64,000 nt of DNA from a virus, in IMG/VR virus record IMGVR_UViG_3300038465_000055, positions 10,738-74,737 of that record, one strand, 5' to 3'. Both the position numbers and the translations under genes were made by a program. This document shows, one piece after another, positions 8,971 through 55,771 of this stretch (position 1 is its first letter; each line of letters starts with the position of its first letter). Below the pieces are notes generated by a model that saw only the letters and a list, made by a program, of their open reading frames with translations, did not search any database and had not been told where the DNA came from.

Positions 8971-11373
8971 TTATTGCCTCGTGGCAACATCTAACTGCAT
9001 GACCCCGACACCTCCATTGTATCCAGTGCCAAAATTATTAGCATTTTCTTCTGTGGCTGAAACAAAGTGAAACCCAGAGACCGCTGGATAGTTGGCAATT
9101 GAGATTGGGCTCGCAAAAAAAGAATTTGCAGTAGCCGTTTCCATCAGAGCACGAGCATCAAAACAAGTCGTTCCGTCAAGGCATGTACCTGTGACAGAAC
9201 CAGACCCCGCCGAAGCGGATGTAAATGCCTGCACCTGATAGCTTGCCGTAAAACCATTCAGGGGAAGTCCAACGACAAACGATGCCCTGTTATTGACTGA
9301 GTTGTCGGCCGCACGGACCGCGCTCGCTCCGGATTGCAACCATACACTCACAGTGTCGGTGACCGTCGTTTTGACGTCGACTTGGTTGTACATATTCCAG
9401 ACACCGAACATCGCAGCGCCGCCACCGCCTGCAGCGCTACCCCAAACATAACTTATCGAACCATTTGCAATGGCATACACGGTGCCGAGATACGTGGCTT
9501 GGTTCGCAGCGACCGAACCATAGTTCGTCGATCCGTTGAAGCAATTCGCCAGCGCATTCTTGTTTGTTGGATATGGCCGCGTGATCTGATCGATGACGGT
9601 GTAGCCGGTGCCGCGCGACGTATTCGATCCTCCGGTATCGGCCGCCCAGCCGCCGCCGCCGCCGCCAGCAGTTGACATCGCCAAGCAAATCCTGTTGGCG
9701 CCACCATGCACCCACCAAACGTCATAGACCTGAGATCCGACGACCTGACCTGCGCTCGCCGCTGCGACCATCGCATCGATAACCTCGCATGAGGCGACCG
9801 TGTCGATCAGATCAAGCGTGCCATTGAAATACGGGACTCCGCCGCCCACCGCGCAATCATATCGCAGCGTCGTCTGGTTCGCGCACGACGACCCGCCGCA
9901 AGACGTTGCGAGCATGACCGGGGTATTAGCGGCCAGCGTGATGCGACCCTGCGGCGCGATGACGGCGCCCGCAACCGTGCATGTTCCGGTGCTTGTAATG
10001 CTGCACGTTCCAGAGACAGCTATTCCAGATCCCGCCGCGATAATAACGTTGGTCACCGTTCCAGTGCCGCCCGCCGTCAGCCAAGCCGGCACGCCGGTCG
10101 GCCCTTCGGAAAATACCTGCGTGCCGCTATTGTTACCGGCCAGCGTCGTCCAGATGGTGCCGTTCCAGAAAGCGAAGTCGCCAACTCGAGTCGGAACAGG
10201 CATCAATGCCGTGATCGCAGCCGGCGCCCCGCTCTGACCCGTACCGCCATTTGCGATCGGCGCAATACCCGTCACGCCTCCGTTGCCGCTGGCGCCTAGA
10301 TTTATCGCCGACAGCCACGAACCCGAGATCGTCCCAGAGTTGATGGCCGAGCCCGCGATCGATGGCGTACCGCCGAGCGCATAAGTTCCGGTGATCGTGC
10401 CTGTGATCGCCGGCCCGGTGCCAAACGTGACAGTCGAATTGAATATAGCGCCGCCTGTGACAGCCAGAAAAAAACCGCCGATGGTCGCGCCGCCCAAAGC
10501 CAGCGACGTTCCCGCTGCCACACCGAGCGACGGCGTCGTCAAGGCCATATTGGTGGCGGCGATCCCGCTGGGTAGCGTTGCGGAGAATGACGGAACGTTC
10601 GATCCGTTCGTCACCAACACCGAATTAGCAGCGAGCGCTGCCGCCGTCATGGTTCCACCGTTCGTCGAATTGTACGGAACGCCAGTGCCGCCGCTTATGG
10701 TCGTGGTTCCATAGGTGATGCCGGTAGCTGGCGCCACGATCGAGCACGTGCTTCCGAGGGCGCATGGGATGCCGTTCACGGTCGTGAGGGCAACCGCTCC
10801 ATTCACATAGTAGTTTCCGCTGACATTGATGGTGCCCGCGCCGGTCAGCGTTCCCATCGTCGTGCCGACCGTTACGCTGCCGTCTTGCTCGACCCCAAAC
10901 CTGTCCGTCAACGTCGCGCTGCCATTCGGCGTAACGCCAAAGCGCAAATAGGTTCCATTCTGGCCCACGCTCCAATTCTGTGCCGCGTAGGTTCTGATCG
11001 CCGCCTGCGGGCCGACCACTCCGGTTCCGTTATAGCCGAACGCATTCAACGAACAGACTTCATCCGCGGACTGCAACGTTGTCGGCGCCGCTTCCGTGCC
11101 ATCCCAGCGCACGCAACTATAGCGCGGTACGCTAGCGTAGGCGTCCAGCTCCGTCCTTACCGTCGTTCCAGCAGCTCCGACAATCTGCAAACCGCTGCCA
11201 GCCAAAAAAGCCGGCGTCGTCTGCGAGGCGTTTAGATTGATGATCTGGGGAGAAAGAAACGTGTTGATCGCGGTCGTGAATGCGCAGTTGACGCACGAAG
11301 GCGGACTTGGCTGCGCCGCTGCACCGACAACAGAAACAGCCAGAGCGAATAGTGCCGCGATAAAACTGCGCAT
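8971..11373 (-). CDS. Gly/Thr/Ala-rich fibre-like protein with Sec-type signal peptide
   Basis: MRSFIAALFALAVSVVGAAA-Q; fibre-type PIANGGTG motif; many close Cys pairs; follows the tail-fibre genes. Confidence 0.75.
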   Translation of the reverse strand: MRSFIAALFALAVSVVGAAAQPSPPSCVNCAFTTAINTFLSPQIINLNASQTTPAFLAGSGLQIVGAAGTTVRTELDAYASVPRYSCVRWDGTEAAPTTLQSADEVCSLNAFGYNGTGVVGPQAAIRTYAAQNWSVGQNGTYLRFGVTPNGSATLTDRFGVEQDGSVTVGTTMGTLTGAGTINVSGNYYVNGAVALTTVNGIPCALGSTCSIVAPATGITYGTTTISGGTGVPYNSTNGGTMTAAALAANSVLVTNGSNVPSFSATLPSGIAATNMALTTPSLGVAAGTSLALGGATIGGFFLAVTGGAIFNSTVTFGTGPAITGTITGTYALGGTPSIAGSAINSGTISGSWLSAINLGASGNGGVTGIAPIANGGTGQSGAPAAITALMPVPTRVGDFAFWNGTIWTTLAGNNSGTQVFSEGPTGVPAWLTAGGTGTVTNVIIAAGSGIAVSGTCSITSTGTCTVAGAVIAPQGRITLAANTPVMLATSCGGSSCANQTTLRYDCAVGGGVPYFNGTLDLIDTVASCEVIDAMVAAASAGQVVGSQVYDVWWVHGGANRICLAMSTAGGGGGGWAADTGGSNTSRGTGYTVIDQITRPYPTNKNALANCFNGSTNYGSVAANQATYLGTVYAIANGSISYVWGSAAGGGGAAMFGVWNMYNQVDVKTTVTDTVSVWLQSGASAVRAADNSVNNRASFVVGLPLNGFTASYQVQAFTSASAGSGSVTGTCLDGTTCFDARALMETATANSFFASPISIANYPAVSGFHFVSATEENANNFGTGYNGGVGVMQLDVATRQ

Positions 11374-41944: not shown

Positions 41945-42301
41945 TCAGTCGCTCGCGCTCACGTTGGCCGGGATAGGCGGCATCGCCACGATATCAGATC
42001 GCTTATGCCAACTGTCAGAGCAAAACTGGATTTGTCCATCGGTGATGATGTAGTGGCACGTGCCGTCTATCGGATGGCCGTCCTCGTCGCGATGCCATTC
42101 TCCGTTCCACTTGCCGTCGACCACAACCAAGCGTTTGCCGGAATGCTTGAAACTCGGCGTGAACGTCGGCTTGTCGACGTCGCCGTTCCATTTCCAGCCG
42201 AAGCCATCGAACACCGGATGCAGCACCTCGCACGCTGGGCACCAATGAAACATCCGGTTGCCGTTGCGCTCTAGGATTGGGCTCAAACGCTCGACCGCCA
42301 T
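41945..42301 (-). CDS. Small Cys/His metal-binding protein (DUF6527-like)
   Basis: HWCPAC...H...WNGD..KPTFTPS...CHYII.DG.IQFC.D..H. Confidence 0.7.
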   Translation of the reverse strand: MAVERLSPILERNGNRMFHWCPACEVLHPVFDGFGWKWNGDVDKPTFTPSFKHSGKRLVVVDGKWNGEWHRDEDGHPIDGTCHYIITDGQIQFCSDSWHKRSDIVAMPPIPANVSASD

Positions 42302-46530: not shown

Positions 46531-47937
46531 TCACTGGCCTTCGGAGTTTCCGAGGGCGATGGCGAGTCCGTAGCAATATGCGTCCAGAAGGTCATCTGCT
46601 CGCCGACTGGCATCTTTGTCACCGATTCTAAAGCCTGTAACCTGCGTCAACAGATGGTTGCGCGTCTCGCGCTTGAAAGTAACGGTCTTGTCATAGGCTA
46701 GTTGGCTGGTTTTTACAAGGCCGCGATAATGATAACTTGAGACCGAAATGGCTCTTTCGTCCTTACCGGCCGCCGTCAGGGTTGATTCGATCTCGTTGAC
46801 GTTCCAGCCACGATTGCGGCCCTGCTGCAGCAGGATAGAACCGGAACCTTTATCCTCGATCCATGCGCCAACGCTGCCCTGCCGGGCGCCGCATTCCTTC
46901 GCATAGTGCTCCAGCATGTCGAACACCACAGGCATCCAGAGCTCTAGTGTGGCGCCCTCAACCTGAATGATGTCCCAATCGAGAACGGTCAGAGGATGCT
47001 GCGCTGTGCTATTGAGCGCGAAATAGATCACCGCCGTGCCATCGTGCTCGGCGCCATCCTTGACGGCGGTGTCGATCACAGCGAACACGGTATCGCACGG
47101 CTTGACGCCAGCGATCGGCTTACCTTCCACCATCCACTTCGCTGGATCAAAGAACGCCTTGCCTGCCCAATCGACGAACTCGGCCTCGTACTCTTGCGCA
47201 TAAACCAGAGGATCGTTGTCGCGCCGCAGGTCCTCAAGATACGTCGTGCGATTGAGAATCCATTGCATTCGGCTTTCGCCCGGCATCCGCTTGGGCAACC
47301 GATCGTTGTCGACCGTCTTGGCGTGATACTCAATGAAGCTGTACTGCGGATCGGTGCAGATCTTGTAAAAGAAATTGTCTGGATTCTTGCCGGCGCTATT
47401 CGAGCAGACCAGCGCTTCACCGCGGAAGTCGAACAGCGTTGGCTTGATCGACTTTTCCCAGATGTCCATCATCGAACCATCGGTGGTGTTGTCACCATCC
47501 TTTGCGAACGCTGCCTCGTCGATCACGATGCGCTGATAGCGGCGCGATCGCCCGGCCATGTGATTTTCCAATGTCCAGAAGTCTAGGCGCCCGCCGCTCC
47601 ATGATCTCATGACCGCTGCGCCCTTGCTGCCACCGTCGACGATCGGCGCAAATGCTCCGCGCATTTCTGTGTAGGCCTCCGACCACGTCTTATGCTGCGG
47701 AGCGAACCAGCCGCACTCCATGCCGTTGGCGAGCCCGTCACCGATCCACAGCTTTGCATAGTCGGTCTTGCCCCAGCGCCGGCCGCAACGCAGCGCTTTG
47801 AAGCGATGCCCCGCCAGCGCGTGCCATGCCGCAGACTGCCCCTTATGCAGTGTCGGGAGCGACAGCCTAACTTGGATCTCTTTGTCGCCGGGATGCCTGT
47901 GCTCGCGCTCGTCGTCCAGAATTACAACGTCGCCCAT
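46531..47937 (-). CDS. terL: Terminase large subunit
   Basis: CGRRWGKT Walker A, IVIDEAA Walker B, QEYEAEF, nuclease DTA...DDLLDA. Confidence 0.95.
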   Translation of the reverse strand: MGDVVILDDEREHRHPGDKEIQVRLSLPTLHKGQSAAWHALAGHRFKALRCGRRWGKTDYAKLWIGDGLANGMECGWFAPQHKTWSEAYTEMRGAFAPIVDGGSKGAAVMRSWSGGRLDFWTLENHMAGRSRRYQRIVIDEAAFAKDGDNTTDGSMMDIWEKSIKPTLFDFRGEALVCSNSAGKNPDNFFYKICTDPQYSFIEYHAKTVDNDRLPKRMPGESRMQWILNRTTYLEDLRRDNDPLVYAQEYEAEFVDWAGKAFFDPAKWMVEGKPIAGVKPCDTVFAVIDTAVKDGAEHDGTAVIYFALNSTAQHPLTVLDWDIIQVEGATLELWMPVVFDMLEHYAKECGARQGSVGAWIEDKGSGSILLQQGRNRGWNVNEIESTLTAAGKDERAISVSSYHYRGLVKTSQLAYDKTVTFKRETRNHLLTQVTGFRIGDKDASRRADDLLDAYCYGLAIALGNSEGQ

Positions 47938-48744: not shown

Positions 48745-48885
48745 TCAACAGATCGACCATGGCAGATCTCCCATCTTCATCGCTGAAATAGAGCACAGCC
48801 GCGTCGACCCCGGCTTAAAGTGATTGACAAAAATACGTTCGATGAGAGCAGTGTATCGGTTCTCGACAGTCTCTCCCTTAGCCAT
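48745..48885 (-). pseudogene. Probable truncated restriction-endonuclease N-terminus
   Basis: ATG overlaps the MTase end; MAKGETVENRYTALIERIFVNHFKPG then stops at 46 aa; similarity to REase starts recalled, not searched. Confidence 0.5.
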
Positions 48886-50209
48886 GGAGTTCTCCCAAGG
48901 CATGCAGGCGAGCCGCTTCCGTCTCTTGCTGAGTTCGCTTGCGAGCACCACTCTTCCGATCTCGCCTTCCGTTCGGAGCAGCCACTCCGAAGTAGCTCGC
49001 CGCTTGCGACATCTCGATAGAAAGTAGAGCTACGTCCCCGAGCTCGACCGCCTTTCTAGGGCGGCTCGGCCTGTAGCCAAGTCCCCTAACTATTTCGCTC
49101 GCAATTGCCCGAGCTAAAGCGGGAGGGACGGCGTTGCCGATCTGTCGCGCTCCATGCCACTTGGTCGAATGCAGTCGAAACCAATCGGGAAAGCCGTGCA
49201 GTCGCGCCATCTCACGCACAGTGATGCAGCGCGGGTATTTGTAGTGTATCGGTCGCGGGCTTGTAAAAGCACCTCGGGCTCCGTCAGTGCCGGCCCTAAG
49301 CGTGTTCGAGAGACCTTTTGCCGGCAGACGGAAGAACCTGGAAATCGGTTCTACCGAACCCGGCTCGGTGCGGTCGAACCTCTGTTGGGAAATCACCGAG
49401 TGTCCGGTTCGCCAAGACGAGGTCAAAACGGACGGGTCCCAGTTTCTCACGTATCCATAGTGCCATGCATCGTTCGTTAGGCACCGCAATTCTCTGGCGT
49501 AGGTTGATGGCTTATTCCACTTTGTGGGTCGCATGCTATCGCCCCGCTCTAGCGCCGCGTATTTATCGGCGTTCGGTAAATCACCAAGAGCGTCGGCGCA
49601 TGTCGGGCCATGTGGCAAATCCAGCGCGGGTTCGTCGGCGGCACTTGTCGTTCGCCGAGGGTACTCGGGCAGCCGCACGCCTTTCTTAGCACCGACCAAA
49701 ATCAAGCGTTCACGATGTTGCGGAACGCCGAAGTGCGCAGCGTCAAACACCTGCCACGGCAGCCGGACAACATAGCCGGCTTCTGCAAACGCAGCGACAA
49801 GCTCGTCCAAGAAGGCGCGGTGCCGCCCGACCGTCAGGCCCTTTACGTTCTCGAAGACAAATGTCTGAGCGCGCAATTCGCGCACGAGCCGCACAAATTC
49901 CAGAACAAGCGAATTGCGCGGATCATCAAGGACGCGATGACCGATCAACGAGAAGCCCTGACATGGAGGTCCACCGAACACGCAATCAACTTGCTGATTG
50001 CCAATTCCGGCGGCCCGCCTGATCTCCGCGCCGGTAATCTCCGCAACGCTTTTTGGGATAACTGCGCAATTCGGAAAATTGAATTTGTGAACAGCACAAT
50101 GGATCGGCTCGATCTCCACCGAGGCGACTACGTCAAACCCCGCCTGCTCGAACCCAAGCGACATTCCCCCAGCGCCCGAAAACAGGTCAATTCCAATAGG
50201 CCGCGCCAT
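48878..50209 (-). CDS. DNA (cytosine-5) methyltransferase
   Basis: DLFSGAGG, GGPPCQGFS, FENVKG, PQHRER, TVREMARLHGF, IGNAVPP. Confidence 0.97.
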   Translation of the reverse strand: MARPIGIDLFSGAGGMSLGFEQAGFDVVASVEIEPIHCAVHKFNFPNCAVIPKSVAEITGAEIRRAAGIGNQQVDCVFGGPPCQGFSLIGHRVLDDPRNSLVLEFVRLVRELRAQTFVFENVKGLTVGRHRAFLDELVAAFAEAGYVVRLPWQVFDAAHFGVPQHRERLILVGAKKGVRLPEYPRRTTSAADEPALDLPHGPTCADALGDLPNADKYAALERGDSMRPTKWNKPSTYARELRCLTNDAWHYGYVRNWDPSVLTSSWRTGHSVISQQRFDRTEPGSVEPISRFFRLPAKGLSNTLRAGTDGARGAFTSPRPIHYKYPRCITVREMARLHGFPDWFRLHSTKWHGARQIGNAVPPALARAIASEIVRGLGYRPSRPRKAVELGDVALLSIEMSQAASYFGVAAPNGRRDRKSGARKRTQQETEAARLHALGELHG

Positions 50210-50337
50210 CGTCACCCCAAATCGATTCGCTATCGACATTAACGGCAACGCCACTCTATTGCTTTGGACATCGTACGTTGATCACAAGAAATCTTTCATG
50301 CTTATCCGGTTTGGACATACGGCCCTAGATGTTGTGG

Positions 50338-51228: not shown

Positions 51229-51455
51229 GACAGCTTCTCCAATAGCTGCTCGGCCTTGTACTTTACCTTATTGAGCGCGCCATGATCAAACGGCTTGTTA
51301 TCGGTGGCGCACAATACGCGCCCCACTGGCAGCGCCGCGACGAACTCGCGCAACAGATCCTCGGCGTTCTCCGCGCGCACGCACAGATCATATGCATCCT
51401 TGGCGAGATCAGCAGCTCGCTTGTAGAGTCCCAATAGCCGATCGGTGTCGTTCAT
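51225..51455 (-). CDS. Hypothetical protein
   Basis: ATGA-coupled at both ends. Confidence 0.6.
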   Translation of the reverse strand: MNDTDRLLGLYKRAADLAKDAYDLCVRAENAEDLLREFVAALPVGRVLCATDNKPFDHGALNKVKYKAEQLLEKLS

Positions 51456-51913
51456 AGCGTGCCTTTCTTCCTGCGCCGGTACCACGTGCGCCGCGATATC
51501 CTCGGCCGCATCTTCTTCCATGGCTTTGTCTGCTCGATCGTGCTGGCCGAGTCCTCAAGGCGAGGGCGGCCGGGCTTGTGCTTAACAAGCGTTGCTTCCA
51601 CATCCTTAAGATCGTCGCTGGATGGCGGTCGCCAAGCAGGCGCACTGGCGTAAGATCCAACAGCTTCGGGTGGCACGCACCGATGCGTGCGCCCGACGAG
51701 CGCGAGGTTGGCGCCACATGCCGGGCAGTTGTCAGTCATCATCGTCGTCTTTCGGCACAGTATTGTCGCTCGGACCTGCAACATCTCTGGATTTTTCTCA
51801 ATACAAACGGGGAAGCCGAGAGCGTCCATAATCAATCCGCGCAAATCCTCGGCAGCTCTGAGATCGTCACGCTCGAAATCAGTTTCCATTTCCACGACGA
51901 ACGCTCGCTTCAT
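51452..51913 (-). CDS. Zn-knuckle/AT-hook DNA-binding protein, copy 1 (possible internal start at 51739)
   Basis: CPACGAN...HRC...PGRPR...KPW...SRRTWYRRR. Confidence 0.65.
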   Translation of the reverse strand: MKRAFVVEMETDFERDDLRAAEDLRGLIMDALGFPVCIEKNPEMLQVRATILCRKTTMMTDNCPACGANLALVGRTHRCVPPEAVGSYASAPAWRPPSSDDLKDVEATLVKHKPGRPRLEDSASTIEQTKPWKKMRPRISRRTWYRRRKKGTL

Positions 51914-52194
51914 TTGCGGGACGCCTTTTCCTCTGCCTTACGACGACGCCATGTCCTTTCTGACATACCGAGAGCAACCCACGGTTCGTGCTTGGGCGAC
52001 TTTGGATCACCAATGCGAGGGCGACCACGCTTCGGATTGATTGCACCGGGGGGCGAAGGTCTCGTCGTGACCTGCGAAGGCCCTTGGTTCCTACCGCCCT
52101 TGCGCACCATGCCCTCAGTCAACGGTGGGATACACCGATGGCTGATGCCGACCATATCGATGTTAGCGCCGCATTTGGGACAGGGATTTGCCAT
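51910..52194 (-). CDS. Zn-knuckle/AT-hook DNA-binding protein, copy 2
   Basis: CPKCGAN...HRC...RGRPR...EPW...SERTWRRR. Confidence 0.65.
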   Translation of the reverse strand: MANPCPKCGANIDMVGISHRCIPPLTEGMVRKGGRNQGPSQVTTRPSPPGAINPKRGRPRIGDPKSPKHEPWVALGMSERTWRRRKAEEKASRK

Positions 52195-52238
52195 GACCGG
52201 ATTTATGGCAGAATTTATGGCAGTGCGCAAGGCCGGCG

Positions 52239-52868
52239 CTATTTACGCGGTTCCTCTGGCGGGACTTCGTCATAGTCGTCGCCCTCAGGCTTCTCAGGCG
52301 TCGACCCCTTCGGCAGCCCGCCCTCGATAATGATGCGCCTTGTGATCGTGGGGCCGCCCGGCGAGCCATCAGCATTGGGCACGTACTCATCGCCCTTGCC
52401 CAGCACCGGCCGCGGATCGAGCGGTTCGCTGCGGAAGCCCATTAGGTTCTTCGACATAAAGAATGACGTGCCTTCGAGACCTCGCGCTAGATTTTTCATC
52501 AGAGTGCCGCTCAAGATCGCAATCACCGCAGCAACTCCGGTATCCAGCTCTTTCCTGAAATGCTTGTGCAAAGTCTCAACAGTGATGGGCCATTGCGTGT
52601 GCGGATTCATTATCGCGTTGGCGATCACCTCCTCCGATTGCTTCATCCCCTTCATCATCAGGACAATACGGCGTTGATCGTCAGTGGGCGAGAATGGCCT
52701 CTGTCCTGCCCCAGCGCGCTTGCCGCCTTTCTTTGGAGTGGGGATGCCAAGCTTATGCATCATGCGAAGCTCTTTGGCGCGCTTTCGCTTCGCTTTTAGC
52801 TTCTGAGCGGCAGTCAGCGGTTTCGCTGGCGCGTCGTCTTTTTTAATTGGGTCCGACTGATCCGGCAC
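52239..52868 (-). CDS. terS: Probable terminase small subunit
   Basis: HTH-like region PTDDQR...TVETLHKHFRKELDTG; FFMSKNLMGF; C-terminal IIIEGGLP strand. Confidence 0.65.
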   Translation of the reverse strand: MPDQSDPIKKDDAPAKPLTAAQKLKAKRKRAKELRMMHKLGIPTPKKGGKRAGAGQRPFSPTDDQRRIVLMMKGMKQSEEVIANAIMNPHTQWPITVETLHKHFRKELDTGVAAVIAILSGTLMKNLARGLEGTSFFMSKNLMGFRSEPLDPRPVLGKGDEYVPNADGSPGGPTITRRIIIEGGLPKGSTPEKPEGDDYDEVPPEEPRK

Positions 52869-53017: not shown

Positions 53018-53497
53018 TTGCTTGTAGGAGGATGGCTCTTGATCTGGACGATAGGCTACCAGCGCTTGGCGCCCTCTCGCTTGCTTGAGCTGGCCGAGCG
53101 ATTGGATGCGCTGGTTATCGATGTTCGAGCTGTTCCAAAGACGCGGATCAAGGGCTATGGAACCCGCCAGCTTGAGACGCTTCTGGGGCGCCGATATCTC
53201 TGGGCAGGCAGCGTTCTAGGCGGACGTGGGCATGGTGGGAAGGTGACCGAGGAAGGGATTAAGGCCGTCGAGCGCAGCGGCAGAGACGGCAACGTCATCC
53301 TGATGTGCGTCTGCCATGTGCCGGGCGATTGCCACCGTCATCAGGATATCTGCGCACCGCATTTCCCCAAGGCCGTCCATCTGTTCGAGGACGAGGCGAT
53401 CGAGGCTGGCGAATTGGAACGATCGATTCGCGAAGGTGGCGATTATATGTGCGAGGAGCTGGACGACACTATTGCGGCAGCTTCGTCGGGCTCATGA
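53018..53497 (+). CDS. DUF488-like protein
   Basis: IWTIGY...IDVR..P...LGG...LMC...CHRH. Confidence 0.8.
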   Translation: MLVGGWLLIWTIGYQRLAPSRLLELAERLDALVIDVRAVPKTRIKGYGTRQLETLLGRRYLWAGSVLGGRGHGGKVTEEGIKAVERSGRDGNVILMCVCHVPGDCHRHQDICAPHFPKAVHLFEDEAIEAGELERSIREGGDYMCEELDDTIAAASSGS

Positions 53498-54245
53498 GCC
53501 GATCGAACTCCTCCCCTGATTGATATCGATTGTCCTCCAGTCCGTGCTTGTTCGTGAAATGCTGGCGCGTTTCCTCGCTGCGAAACACCACGACCAGATA
53601 GAAGCTTTCGCTGTTGCGCGCGCCTTGGCCCGACTTCACGCCGTCATAGGCATCCCGCATATCGCGGACCCGCTGCGCAAACTCCTCCAGCTTGCCGTCA
53701 TCTTGAGCGAGGAACACGGAGTCTCCGAATAGTTTGAAAATGTCGGAGTGATCGAAACCTGTACCGTCAAGATCAAGTCCAGTGGTACGCAGGATATTCT
53801 GCAATCCTTCCATGTCGAAGTCACCGGCGGCCTCTTGATTGTTGAGCAATAGGTTCAATTCCTTTTCGCGAATATCGTCGACGTCAATCACCGCAATATC
53901 GAGATCATAATCATCGGTCCCGGCGATGGCGTCGAGCTGATCAATGCGCTGATGGCCACCGACCAGATTGCCAGTGCGTTTATTCCACGTCAGCGGCGCT
54001 ACTAGGCCGTGCTTCTTCAAACCTGTCCGTAGCTTTCGCTTGGCCGCTTCGCTCAAGATCCGAGGATTGTACGGCGCCGCCGTCAGCAGCCGCCTGTTCA
54101 TTCGCTCGATCTTGAACGTCTGCAAATTTGACAGCCCGCCTTCGACTGCCTCGCTTTTTTTGCTGGCCCGCTTCTTCTTCGGTGAGCCCTCGCTCGGTGC
54201 GAGGCTTTCCAGCAACGACGGCGGAGCGCTCTGCGTCTGTGCCAT
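53469..54245 (-). CDS. ParB/Srx N-terminal domain protein
   Basis: APYNPR...GLVAPLTWNKRTGNLVGGHQR...EKELNLLLN. Confidence 0.9.
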   Translation of the reverse strand: MAQTQSAPPSLLESLAPSEGSPKKKRASKKSEAVEGGLSNLQTFKIERMNRRLLTAAPYNPRILSEAAKRKLRTGLKKHGLVAPLTWNKRTGNLVGGHQRIDQLDAIAGTDDYDLDIAVIDVDDIREKELNLLLNNQEAAGDFDMEGLQNILRTTGLDLDGTGFDHSDIFKLFGDSVFLAQDDGKLEEFAQRVRDMRDAYDGVKSGQGARNSESFYLVVVFRSEETRQHFTNKHGLEDNRYQSGEEFDRLMSPTKLPQ

Positions 54246-54906
54246 AAAATTTCCTTCGCCAGATCAGCGCCTCGATATAGGGAAAATATTCTGCGATGCG
54301 CCAGAAGTCGGCCGGATGATTATCATAGATCCACATTAGCTCATGAGGCACAAGGCCAACGCCGCTTGCCGTGCCTCCAGCGGAATTATCGGGGATAGCG
54401 ATGCCACGGCCCTTGAGATACGAAAGCACGTCCCACTTGGCCCACTCCGCGAGCGGATAGACGATCCTGCCCCAATGCTGAGTCGCGTGCATGAAGCGCT
54501 TGCGCCATCCGCTATCGGCTTTCTTGGCGCCGGTGAGGATCAGTGGGATCTTGGTTTCGATCATCGCATACGAATAGATATCAGCCAGCTTGATATCCGG
54601 GACGTCGTCGCGTTGCCACCAAGGATTACAATACTGGCCCTCTTTCATCGCTGCGATCCCGCCGTAGTGCGGAAAGCGATGGATCTTGACGCTCCACCTT
54701 TTCTCTACCGCAGCGAGATCGGCATCCATGTAGGCGATCGCCGGCACCCATTCCATATAGAAACCCTCGACGTGATCAAACCAACGCTTCGCAAGGTCCA
54801 TCACAACGCGAGAGTCTTTGCCATCAGAATAAGCGACCAGCACTTTCGGAGACATTGAGCGCGCCTTTTCAAGCGCGCTCTTTGTCGATTCCAATAACTC
54901 AGACAA
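53980..54906 (-). CDS. PP-loop ATPase (PAPS-reductase-like adenine nucleotide alpha hydrolase), probable TTG start
   Basis: VAYSDGKDS PP-loop; TGAKKADS..R; YPLAEW. Confidence 0.85.
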   Translation of the reverse strand: MSELLESTKSALEKARSMSPKVLVAYSDGKDSRVVMDLAKRWFDHVEGFYMEWVPAIAYMDADLAAVEKRWSVKIHRFPHYGGIAAMKEGQYCNPWWQRDDVPDIKLADIYSYAMIETKIPLILTGAKKADSGWRKRFMHATQHWGRIVYPLAEWAKWDVLSYLKGRGIAIPDNSAGGTASGVGLVPHELMWIYDNHPADFWRIAEYFPYIEALIWRRKFYGTDAERSAVVAGKPRTERGLTEEEAGQQKKRGSRRRAVKFADVQDRANEQAAADGGAVQSSDLERSGQAKATDRFEEARPSSAADVE

Positions 54907-54911
54907 CGCTG

Positions 54912-55010
54912 CTAACCACCACCACGCGGCTTGCCGGGCTTGCCGCGCCGTCCAGCCTTCTTCGCAGCTTTCTTTGGTGCCTTCTTCGCCTTCTTGGCTT
55001 TCTTTGCCAT
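54912..55010 (-). CDS. 32-aa Lys/Ala-rich histone-H1-like peptide ending GGG (not in ORF track)
   Basis: GAGGAG RBS; MAKKAKKAKKAPKKAAKKAGRRGKPGKPRGGG. Confidence 0.8.
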   Translation of the reverse strand: MAKKAKKAKKAPKKAAKKAGRRGKPGKPRGGG

Positions 55011-55217
55011 TGTCGATTCTCCTCAACCGCATGATGCGGGCGAATCATCTGTAACCGCTCAATGATTCGCTGGCAAATTATTGGGGCGTTTGAGGCTGGT
55101 TTTTCCAGAGCTGGAATCAAGCCAAAAATGCACCGTTTTGGCTTGGACTAGCCTTGGTGTGGGGGAATAGGTTAAAAAATGGTGTATTTTCAGCCTCTTA
55201 TGGGCCAAAAAGGGCTG

Positions 55218-55247
55218 TTGACTTGTTTTTACCCTATACTCTATATT
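55218..55247 (+). promoter_or_regulatory. Sigma70-type promoter for the + strand early operon
   Basis: TTGACT-N18-TATATT, with phased A/T tracts upstream. Confidence 0.7.
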
Positions 55248-55250
55248 TGG

Positions 55251-55383
55251 CCTTGGGAGTTGACGCTCCCGCAAGGCACTCCCTGAAACCTATCTCCGCC
55301 GCTTCCGGTTTGCAGCCCTTACTCGGCAGAAGCACTAGACAGAAACACTAACTGCGCAGGCGTCATGGGCATTGTCGCCTTTT
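55251..55383 (+). other. Structured 5' leader (three predicted stems)
   Basis: CCTTGGGAG..CTCCCGCAAGG; CTGAAACC..GGTTTGCAG; AGGCG..CGCCT followed by T. Confidence 0.45.
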
Positions 55384-55405
55384 GCCTCTAACAGGAGTCC
55401 ACACA

Positions 55406-55771
55406 ATGGCGCTACAGGGTAAAATCATCGCGCTCGAACATTCGAAGTTTGGTTTCGAGTACGTCACGACCGATTACAACAAGCCGGAGCGTATTCGGCA
55501 GGTTTGGCCGATCGCATCGCTAAAGTCTGAAGGTATGTCTTATTGCCGCGTGGACGAGGCGATCGGAAAACCGGCTTCGATCACCGATGGCCGCGTGTCC
55601 TGCTATCTTGGAAACGGCAATTGGGTTCGCGGCGAGCTATCGAACCTCGGGCAAACCGCATCGCTCTCGATTGAGATCACACCTATCCCGTGCCCGAAAT
55701 GCCGCAGAGAGACTCGCTGGCACAATGGCGCTTGGCAAAAACTTATGAAGAAAGGCTGGGTGCCAGCGTGA
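55406..55771 (+). CDS. Hypothetical early protein
   Basis: AACAGGAG RBS. Confidence 0.7.
   Translation: MALQGKIIALEHSKFGFEYVTTDYNKPERIRQVWPIASLKSEGMSYCRVDEAIGKPASITDGRVSCYLGNGNWVRGELSNLGQTASLSIEITPIPCPKCRRETRWHNGAWQKLMKKGWVPA

Follow-up and report, generated by a model that had tools for sequence, protein, structure and literature searches.

Within a 64,000-nucleotide (nt) stretch of viral DNA, the window (positions 10,738 to 74,737 of IMG/VR virus record IMGVR_UViG_3300038465_000055), we describe a module of three genes encoding a 32-residue basic peptide that ends in Gly-Gly-Gly, a PP-loop ATP pyrophosphatase of the PAPS (3'-phosphoadenosine-5'-phosphosulfate) reductase family, and a ParB-like protein. 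To judge from the sequences, this three-gene set is a recurrent one, present in many unrelated phages. We infer most firmly that the three genes act together and that the free glycine end of the peptide is a functional feature. Our favoured reading, to which we give a probability of about 0.42, is that the peptide tail is the substrate of the PP-loop enzyme.

The peptide gene, read from the sequence, lies on the minus strand at positions 54912 to 55010, stop codon included. Its product is a low-complexity chain of Lys, Ala, Gly and Pro whose 32 residues include 12 Lys and 3 Arg, no Asp or Glu, and Gly-Gly-Gly at the C-terminus. A Shine-Dalgarno (SD) sequence, GAGGAG (55019 to 55024, minus strand), is found 8 nt 5' of the ATG at 55010, and the TAG stop (54914 to 54912) is followed 5 nt on by the TTG at 54906 that begins the PP-loop gene with its SDGKDS motif. 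On all of these points, the ribosome-binding site, the glycine end and the spacing, the preliminary description of this DNA is confirmed from the sequence. Among the 1006 open reading frames (ORFs) of at least 20 residues on both strands of the window, this is the one that is both basic and Gly-Gly-ended. The preliminary description had also called the peptide H1-like, which holds for composition only: histone H1 has a winged-helix globular domain with Lys/Ala/Pro-rich tails, and the window peptide is tail-like in composition with no domain match.

The peptide had been missed by the ORF track because the product called there, P0001 (349 residues, with its start close to the ATG at 55032), runs across the peptide ORF in a different frame. 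The 42-residue N-terminal extension of P0001 is unconserved among homologues. No reading frame is closed at 54912 to 55010, and codon-position GC, being similar in the peptide and extension frames, does not pick between them. Scans of Pfam, PHROG and NCBIfam gave no family match for the peptide, an exact-pattern scan of viral contigs with the peptide's own words returned nothing useful, and our literature searches found no paper describing a Gly-tailed peptide of this kind. That the 32-residue ORF is a real gene is settled by comparison with other loci, and not by its composition.

The comparison set comprised 38 non-redundant loci with enzyme homologues (23-72% identity, GC 0.34-0.69), drawn from one genome contig, viral and metagenome contigs and cultured phages, in which we looked for a small basic ORF ending between -40 and +110 nt from the enzyme start. 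Such an ORF stands directly upstream of the enzyme in 32 of the 38 loci. An exact Gly-Gly end is present in 16 of these 32, a final Gly in 21, and three or more Gly in the last six residues in 23. As a control, the same criteria picked out 0.35% and 0.45% of 13,126 positions in the same DNA, with binomial P values of about 1e-29 and 1e-44 that are overstated, since the loci are related. Conservation of a basic upstream peptide with terminal glycine, which the preliminary description had put forward as a check, is thus borne out against a control rate of about 0.4%.

Nearly all of the upstream ORFs start with Met-Ala, and most are preceded by a GGAGG-type SD sequence. The bodies of the peptides, some rich in Lys and Ala and others in Arg, do not align across loci. 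The clade of the window (loci L001, L004, L010, L020 and L022) has Lys/Ala-rich bodies with oligo-Gly ends, and a second clade (L011-L014, L026, L037, L041, L044 and L047) has Arg-rich bodies ending RRKSxGGxGG. As the comparison indicates, what the peptides have in common is small size, high positive charge and a free Gly end, so that the C-terminus is conserved and not the body. One of these peptides is already an annotated coding sequence: gp53 of Bacteroides phage BS-TP2, a Gly-/Arg-rich protein of 53 residues with Gly at its end, in the gene order ASCH (gp52), gp53, PAPS (gp54), then ParB-like, TerS-like, TerL and portal.

In several loci the peptide and enzyme genes are separated by a longer spacer, with gaps of 45-102 nt (L023:2923-2985, L006:2899-3000, L010:2892-2958, L011:2925-2979, L012:2919-2979 and L009:2887-2931). 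The long-gap spacers fold into a strong hairpin (z -8.0 in L023, -5.6 in L006 and -5.4 in L010), which in L023 and L006 is followed by a U-tract. By its appearance, the hairpin would be a leaky terminator or an RNA stabiliser giving more peptide message than enzyme message, an excess that fits a stoichiometric peptide and a catalytic enzyme. Two other accounts of the peptide ORF were rejected. The Gly codons are not the ribosome-binding site of the enzyme gene, being mostly GGC or GGT and lying 45-102 nt away in eight loci; nor is the peptide fused to the enzyme by frameshift, as the two are separate genes in related loci with hairpins between them.

The PP-loop gene (53980 to 54906, minus strand; conserved domain ending near 54240) matches PF01507 (E = 4.7e-7, 30.4 bits against a cut-off of 22.5) and phrog_424, and the Pfam scan returned PF01507 only, with no QueC (PF06508). 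The N-termini of homologues align at the TTG at 54906, in nearly all of the best 150 family representatives the profile match begins within the first few residues, and by these alignments this TTG is the true start. The S-D-G-K-D-S motif occupies residues 27-32 (54811 to 54828, minus strand), with S27, G29, K30, D31 and S32 conserved at 94-100%. In an alignment of 137 members, the residues conserved at 90% or above are those of the PP-loop together with G126, D131, R135, P151, W155, D200, F208 and P209. The family holds 463 representatives (50% identity) at E <= 1e-30 and 1082 at E <= 1e-10, almost all of them stand-alone proteins of 215-255 residues; we found no longer or fused relatives, which is weak evidence.

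The cysteine content of the family constrains its chemistry. No Cys column exceeds 66% in the 137 members, seven of which have at most one Cys, and the single Cys of the window enzyme (residue 93) is not conserved. Neither the C-terminal catalytic Cys (ECGLH-type) nor iron-sulfur (Fe-S) cysteines are conserved in the same alignment, and the window enzyme scores 14.9 bits with the NCBIfam PAPS_reductase model against a cut-off of 254. Since there is no conserved Cys, PAPS reduction and sulfur transfer by an Fe-S cluster or a persulfide are unlikely. On the alignment, the catalytic Cys of PAPS reductase is excluded, as are the Fe-S ligands of APS (adenosine 5'-phosphosulfate) reductase, TtuA, NcsA, DndC and BrxP, and the missing conserved Cys also argues against a sacrificial Cys of the LarE type. 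The earlier view that this is not sulfate assimilation therefore stands, since the family conserves no Cys, catalytic or other. The sulfur donation proposed beside it is unlikely, given that the enzymes have neither a conserved Cys nor Fe-S ligands and that a beta-grasp carrier is missing. We infer that the chemistry remaining to the enzyme would be transfer of an adenylyl group to an oxyanion, after which AMP would be displaced.

An AlphaFold2 model of the enzyme, built from 25 sequences, reached a predicted local distance difference test (pLDDT) score of 88.5. By VIA-align, it lies closest to the PAPS domain of FAD synthase (Z 14.7, root-mean-square deviation 3.1, 155 residues aligned) and to LarE (Z 14.6), and its other neighbours in the PDB (Z 11.7-14.7) are CysD, APS and PAPS reductases, QueC, GMP and NAD synthetases, TilS, TtuA and NcsA. 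No single enzyme stands out among these neighbours, which cover the full spread of PP-loop enzymes. A helical C-terminal part, at about residues 187-236, is specific to the family.

Most homologues have a stop codon immediately behind ...RRKFYG; the enzyme ORF of the window does not, and 72 extra codons (54198 to 53983) carry it over the start of the ParB-like gene, giving an overlap of 265 nt (53980 to 54245). The same tail is found in the two closest relatives, P0002 and P0003 (75-76% identity). Within the overlap, GC at third codon positions is 0.76 in the ParB frame versus 0.49 in the tail frame, and the tail looks like incidental read-through, not a selected domain. We also rejected -1 slippage at the overlap as a way of joining the PP-loop and ParB-like proteins, since the ParB-like gene is in the +1 frame and the tail resembles non-coding DNA in its codon-position GC.

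The third gene (53469 to 54245, minus strand, with its ATG inside the PP-loop ORF) encodes a ParB/Srx-fold protein of 258 residues that matches phrog_9353 (9e-48) and phrog_620 (1.1e-20). A ParB/Srx protein had been placed after the enzyme by the preliminary description, in agreement with these PHROG matches and with the predicted fold, and wherever a locus is long enough to tell, the gene after the enzyme is ParB-like. The first 35 residues are disordered, the core (residues 45-135) is modelled at pLDDT above 90, and model confidence is lower after residue 135. A GGHQR motif (the GxxR box) lies at residues 96-100 (53960 to 53946). The motifs NPR, GGHQR, LNN and GF are shared by 19 ParB-like sequences, in which G97, Q99 and R100 are invariant and H98 is conserved at 90% or more. 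Foldseek placed ParB-CDP (6sdk) as the best match (E = 1.8e-5), then ParB-CTPgammaS (7bnr), KorB (8qa9), Noc and, more weakly, sulfiredoxin, while PADLOC matched the ParB-type N-domain carried by some type II methyltransferases (E = 2.6e-15). Canonical partition ParB has a central helix-turn-helix (HTH) DNA-binding domain, a ParA partner and parS sites; for the window protein, Pfam gave no HTH or ParBc match, and no ParA was seen adjacent to it. By the model it has the N-terminal, CTPase-type fold of ParB and is a predicted nucleoside triphosphate (NTP) binder.

The proposed module would consist of a disordered, polycationic, Gly-tailed peptide, a Cys-independent PP-loop ATP pyrophosphatase and a ParB/Srx-fold NTP-binding protein; it would open the late, packaging-side transcription unit, with a DUF488 gene (ASCH elsewhere) as a common accessory. 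Ubiquitin-like carriers reach a buried adenylation site by a short flexible Gly end. Since such an end is what these carriers use, and since transfer of the alpha-phosphate of ATP is the only conserved chemistry of the enzyme, we propose adenylation of the peptide's C-terminal carboxylate. Mechanistically, the flexible Gly tail would thread into the PP-loop active site, where its carboxylate would attack the alpha-phosphate of ATP to yield peptidyl-AMP and pyrophosphate (PPi), and an amine would then displace AMP to form an amide. The ParB-like protein would recruit the enzyme to double-stranded phage DNA or activate it there.

As to the acceptor, we favour a nucleobase amine on phage DNA, modified at or before packaging. 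DNA is suggested by the partnership with a ParB-like protein, by the polycationic peptide body, by the link to ASCH and by the location ahead of the packaging genes, although amidation of the C-terminus by ammonia or transfer to a protein lysine would be sub-variants that the chemistry allows equally. ASCH enzymes are N4-acyl-cytosine amidohydrolases (PMC6972931; bioRxiv 10.64898/2026.02.27.708502), and a DNA-modifying dioxygenase depends on a phage ParB homologue for its action on double-stranded DNA (PMC13229309). The most specific form of the proposal is a peptide-DNA conjugate in which the C-terminal Gly would be amide-joined to a nucleobase amine such as N4 of cytosine, with the ParB-fold protein as DNA-loading subunit and ASCH or DUF488 proteins as readers or erasers; we rate it as quite unlikely. 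If true, it would introduce peptidyl modification of DNA bases for the first time, and would mirror, at the C-terminus, the deazaguanylation seen in CBASS (cyclic-oligonucleotide-based antiphage signalling system).

Phages and prophages carry pairs annotated as 'PAPS reductase family protein' and 'ParB-like nuclease', which are the same two families in the same order as in the window. They include IbrA/IbrB (YbdN/YbdM) of Escherichia coli, likened here by gene families and order as described. This PAPS-reductase-like and ParB-like pair reportedly switches on the prophage eib genes, as Sandt et al. are said to have found in 2002. To our knowledge, no biochemical function is known for PAPS/ParB phage gene pairs, and for IbrAB only the genetic effect on the eib genes. 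Literature searches on the chemistry of the pair returned nothing useful, and NCBIfam gave no named match for either the PP-loop enzyme or the ParB-like protein.

The pairs TtuA-TtuB and Ncs6-Urm1 join a PP-loop ATPase to a small protein that inserts its free C-terminal Gly-Gly into the active site, and in this they resemble the proposed module. However, the carrier in these systems is a folded beta-grasp protein, activated separately by an E1-like enzyme, and TtuA has a Cys-ligated Fe-S cluster, whereas the partner in the window is a disordered polycation of 32 residues and the enzyme family has no conserved Cys. Likewise, the window peptide has the free C-terminal Gly-Gly of ubiquitin-like, ThiS and MoaD carriers, but neither their beta-grasp fold (about 65-100 residues) nor their activation by an E1-like protein (ThiF/MoeB).

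A parallel in substrate is offered by Cap9 with CdnD (type IV CBASS) and QatC with QatB, QueC-family PP-loop enzymes that act on flexible glycine-bearing protein termini (bioRxiv 10.1101/2025.04.06.647259; PMC13279940). The polarity there is opposite, since the N-terminal amine of the protein attacks an adenylated nucleobase carboxylate; the window peptide starts Met-Ala and has its glycines at the C-terminus, so the peptide would itself be the adenylated partner. The enzymes also belong to different groups (QueC family as against PF01507), the window module is phage-borne and not host-borne, and the family profile matches Cap9 over a short segment (9nto_B, E = 6e-5, 37 residues). LarE, NAD synthetase, QueC, CysD and the FAD synthase PAPS domain have the fold and PP-loop of the window enzyme (Z 11.7-14.7). 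In the chemistry that they share, PPi is released when an oxyanion attacks ATP at its alpha-phosphate. These enzymes act on small molecules, and LarE uses a catalytic Cys or Fe-S cluster, neither of which the window enzyme has. For the third component, the nearest likeness is 5mYOX176 with ParB176, where a ParB-fold protein encoded beside a DNA-modifying enzyme is needed on double-stranded DNA (PMC13229309), and the same arrangement is seen for DndB with DndC and DpdB with DpdA (PMC12839542). The modifying enzymes of those systems are a dioxygenase (5mYOX176), a transglycosylase (DpdA) and an Fe-S PP-loop enzyme (DndC), with no peptide involved.

Several points weigh against the peptide tail as substrate. 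Contact between peptide and enzyme, the adenylation, and modified DNA or protein are all putative, and adjacency with co-inheritance could come from a shared role in packaging without enzyme-substrate chemistry. The match between enzyme and peptide clades may be plain vertical co-inheritance, and the 38 loci are not phylogenetically independent. The basic ORF has no Gly end in L006 and L023 (both followed by canonical terminators), in L008 and in Riemerella phage RAP44, where it ends NGAI, and a separate peptide is missing from Lactobacillus phages JNU_P7 and LR1, Pasteurella phage Pm86, L049 and L050, so that the Gly tail is not obligatory for the enzyme family. Finally, the window has DUF488, not ASCH, which makes the N4-acyl-cytosine lead an indirect one here.

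It is possible, though in our view unlikely, that the peptide is a histone-like helper of DNA condensation or packaging which shares the operon, neutralises charge and aids TerS or the ParB-like protein on DNA. The enzyme would then act alone on DNA or a nucleotide, by TilS-like base amination or by phosphate adenylylation as in FAD synthase and CysD, and the Gly tail would be a flexible end or a docking site on the ParB-like protein or terminase. Such a helper agrees with the extreme basic charge and low complexity of the peptide, with the place of its gene at the head of the packaging genes in cultured relatives and with the terminators behind it, which suggest high, separate expression; some members of the enzyme family have no Gly-tailed peptide, and the nearest folds include phosphate- and sulfate-adenylylating enzymes. 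However, it gives no reason for a free C-terminal Gly-Gly conserved on bodies that do not align, and the 5-nt coupling to the enzyme gene in the window is left without explanation. A late-gene regulator in the manner of IbrA/IbrB, with the ParB-like protein as an NTP-gated DNA clamp and the enzyme and peptide as cofactors, seems improbable. The gene pair and its order are the same, in a prophage or phage setting, the module is first in the late unit beside a control region with inverted repeats, and KorB, one of the ParB proteins that regulate transcription, is among the fold matches; yet no HTH domain was detected in the ParB-like protein, and both the ATP pyrophosphatase chemistry and the Gly tail would be without a role.

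A sulfur-carrier function would have the peptide bear a C-terminal thiocarboxylate, as TtuB, ThiS, MoaD and Urm1 do, while the enzyme thiolates DNA or tRNA in the manner of TtuA or DndC. The Gly-Gly-ended partner speaks for it, as do TtuA and the TtuA-TtuB complex (5gha) among the Foldseek matches and the membership of DndC-type enzymes in the same Pfam family. We nevertheless consider it very improbable: conserved Cys and Fe-S ligands are missing from the 137 members, a low-complexity peptide of 32 residues cannot form a beta-grasp fold, and among the operon genes no cysteine desulfurase, E1-like protein or rhodanese was found in the Pfam, PHROG and NCBIfam scans. PADLOC gave no DndC or SspD match, and BrxP matched over the PP-loop motif only (E = 8e-4, residues 5-41). 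Scarcely credible, lastly, is that the 32-residue ORF is not a gene and that the region is the 5' end of a longer PP-loop gene (from the ATG at 55032) or an untranslated leader. The three open frames, the undiscriminating codon-position GC and the choice of the long ORF by the gene caller would permit it, but homologues lack the N-terminal extension, the SD site is correctly spaced for the peptide ATG, and the same class of ORF occurs in 32 of the 38 loci, among them phages of low GC, in which ORFs seldom arise by chance.

Among the neighbouring genes, the DUF488 gene (53018 to 53497, plus strand; PF04343, E = 2.9e-7) is convergent with the ParB-like gene and overlaps its end by 29 nt. An antisense DUF488 gene has the same position in L002, L003 and L010. 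At other loci ASCH takes its place or sits just upstream of the peptide gene (ASCH loci: L011-L015, L021, L023-L026, L030, L032, L034, L037 and L048-L050). Whole-record searches for DUF488 and ASCH gave weak adjacent matches in two more phages and none in one complete genome. Given this uneven presence, the accessory is frequent and not obligatory. The alternation suggests equivalent roles for DUF488 and ASCH, perhaps as reader or eraser of the product; ParB-fold fusions to ASCH, DUF488 and DUF3850 have been reported (bioRxiv 10.1101/2025.10.10.680097). In Lactobacillus-type phages, the ASCH protein encoded directly upstream of the enzyme (L030:1497-1964, L049:259-726, L050:988-1455) has a Lys-rich C-terminal tail of about 45 residues, which may be a fused or alternative basic component.

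Beyond the DUF488 gene, which lies on the opposite strand between the two, the next gene co-oriented with the ParB-like gene encodes 209 residues (52239 to 52868, minus strand). The preliminary description took it for a probable TerS, an identification that the searches do not bear out: it matches only phrog_12540, an unnamed viral family of unknown function (2.4e-9), with no Pfam or NCBIfam match and viral hypothetical clusters only in the Atlas. TerL lies 4.3 kb further on (46531 to 47937). In other phages the pair is often found immediately ahead of TerS-TerL, examples being Lactobacillus phage LR1, Riemerella phage RAP44 and Bacteroides phage BS-TP2. Just downstream of the 209-residue ORF, two adjacent genes (51910 to 52230 and 51452 to 51913, minus strand) encode small paralogous proteins with 33% identity (E = 8e-16). 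The two have in common a zinc-ribbon-like motif (CPxCGAN..VG..HRCxPP), a second motif, GRPR, and a basic tail of the form RTWxRRK.

Between the module and TerL, the late operon also holds a C5 cytosine DNA methyltransferase gene (48878 to 50254, minus strand; PF00145, E = 8e-66), and the phage thus already has one DNA-modifying enzyme near its packaging genes. A DUF6527 gene (41945 to 42301, minus strand; PF20137, E = 2.1e-7) lies in the head module. DUF6527 (BubE) is a serine protease specific for bacterial ubiquitin-like proteins, which it cuts at their C-terminal Gly, whether the bond there is a peptide or an isopeptide bond (bioRxiv 10.1101/2024.11.21.623953). It was rejected as a fourth part of the module, being found in none of five other module-bearing phage genomes; here it may be a counter-defence gene, or may process a Gly-ended conjugate in this phage only.

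On its 5' side, the peptide gene opens the leftward operon behind a non-coding, divergent control region of 370 nt (55381 to 55011) that parts it from the rightward genes. Three inverted repeats lie in this region (55035 to 55075, 55118 to 55145 and 55167 to 55237, with arms of 14, 10 and 12 nt) and may serve as operators or as hairpins in the leader. The minus strand of the control region upstream of the peptide gene showed no sigma-70-like promoter, Rfam gave no family on 54800 to 55500 beyond a chance miRNA match, and a terminator scan of the window operon returned nothing useful.

The enzyme family is routinely annotated as a sulfur-metabolism 'auxiliary metabolic gene' (e.g. PMC10434257), a label that the cysteine data contradict. 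With the Gly-tailed peptide as a third conserved part, an unexplained gene pair becomes a testable case of C-terminal peptide activation by a PP-loop enzyme, and cultured carriers are at hand in Bacteroides phage BS-TP2 and, with a variant tail, Riemerella phage RAP44. If the acceptor is DNA, the module would represent a new class of DNA modification tied to packaging, with a bearing on restriction evasion and on sequencing readout. If it is a protein or ammonia, the module would provide a new, E1-independent route of peptide C-terminal chemistry.

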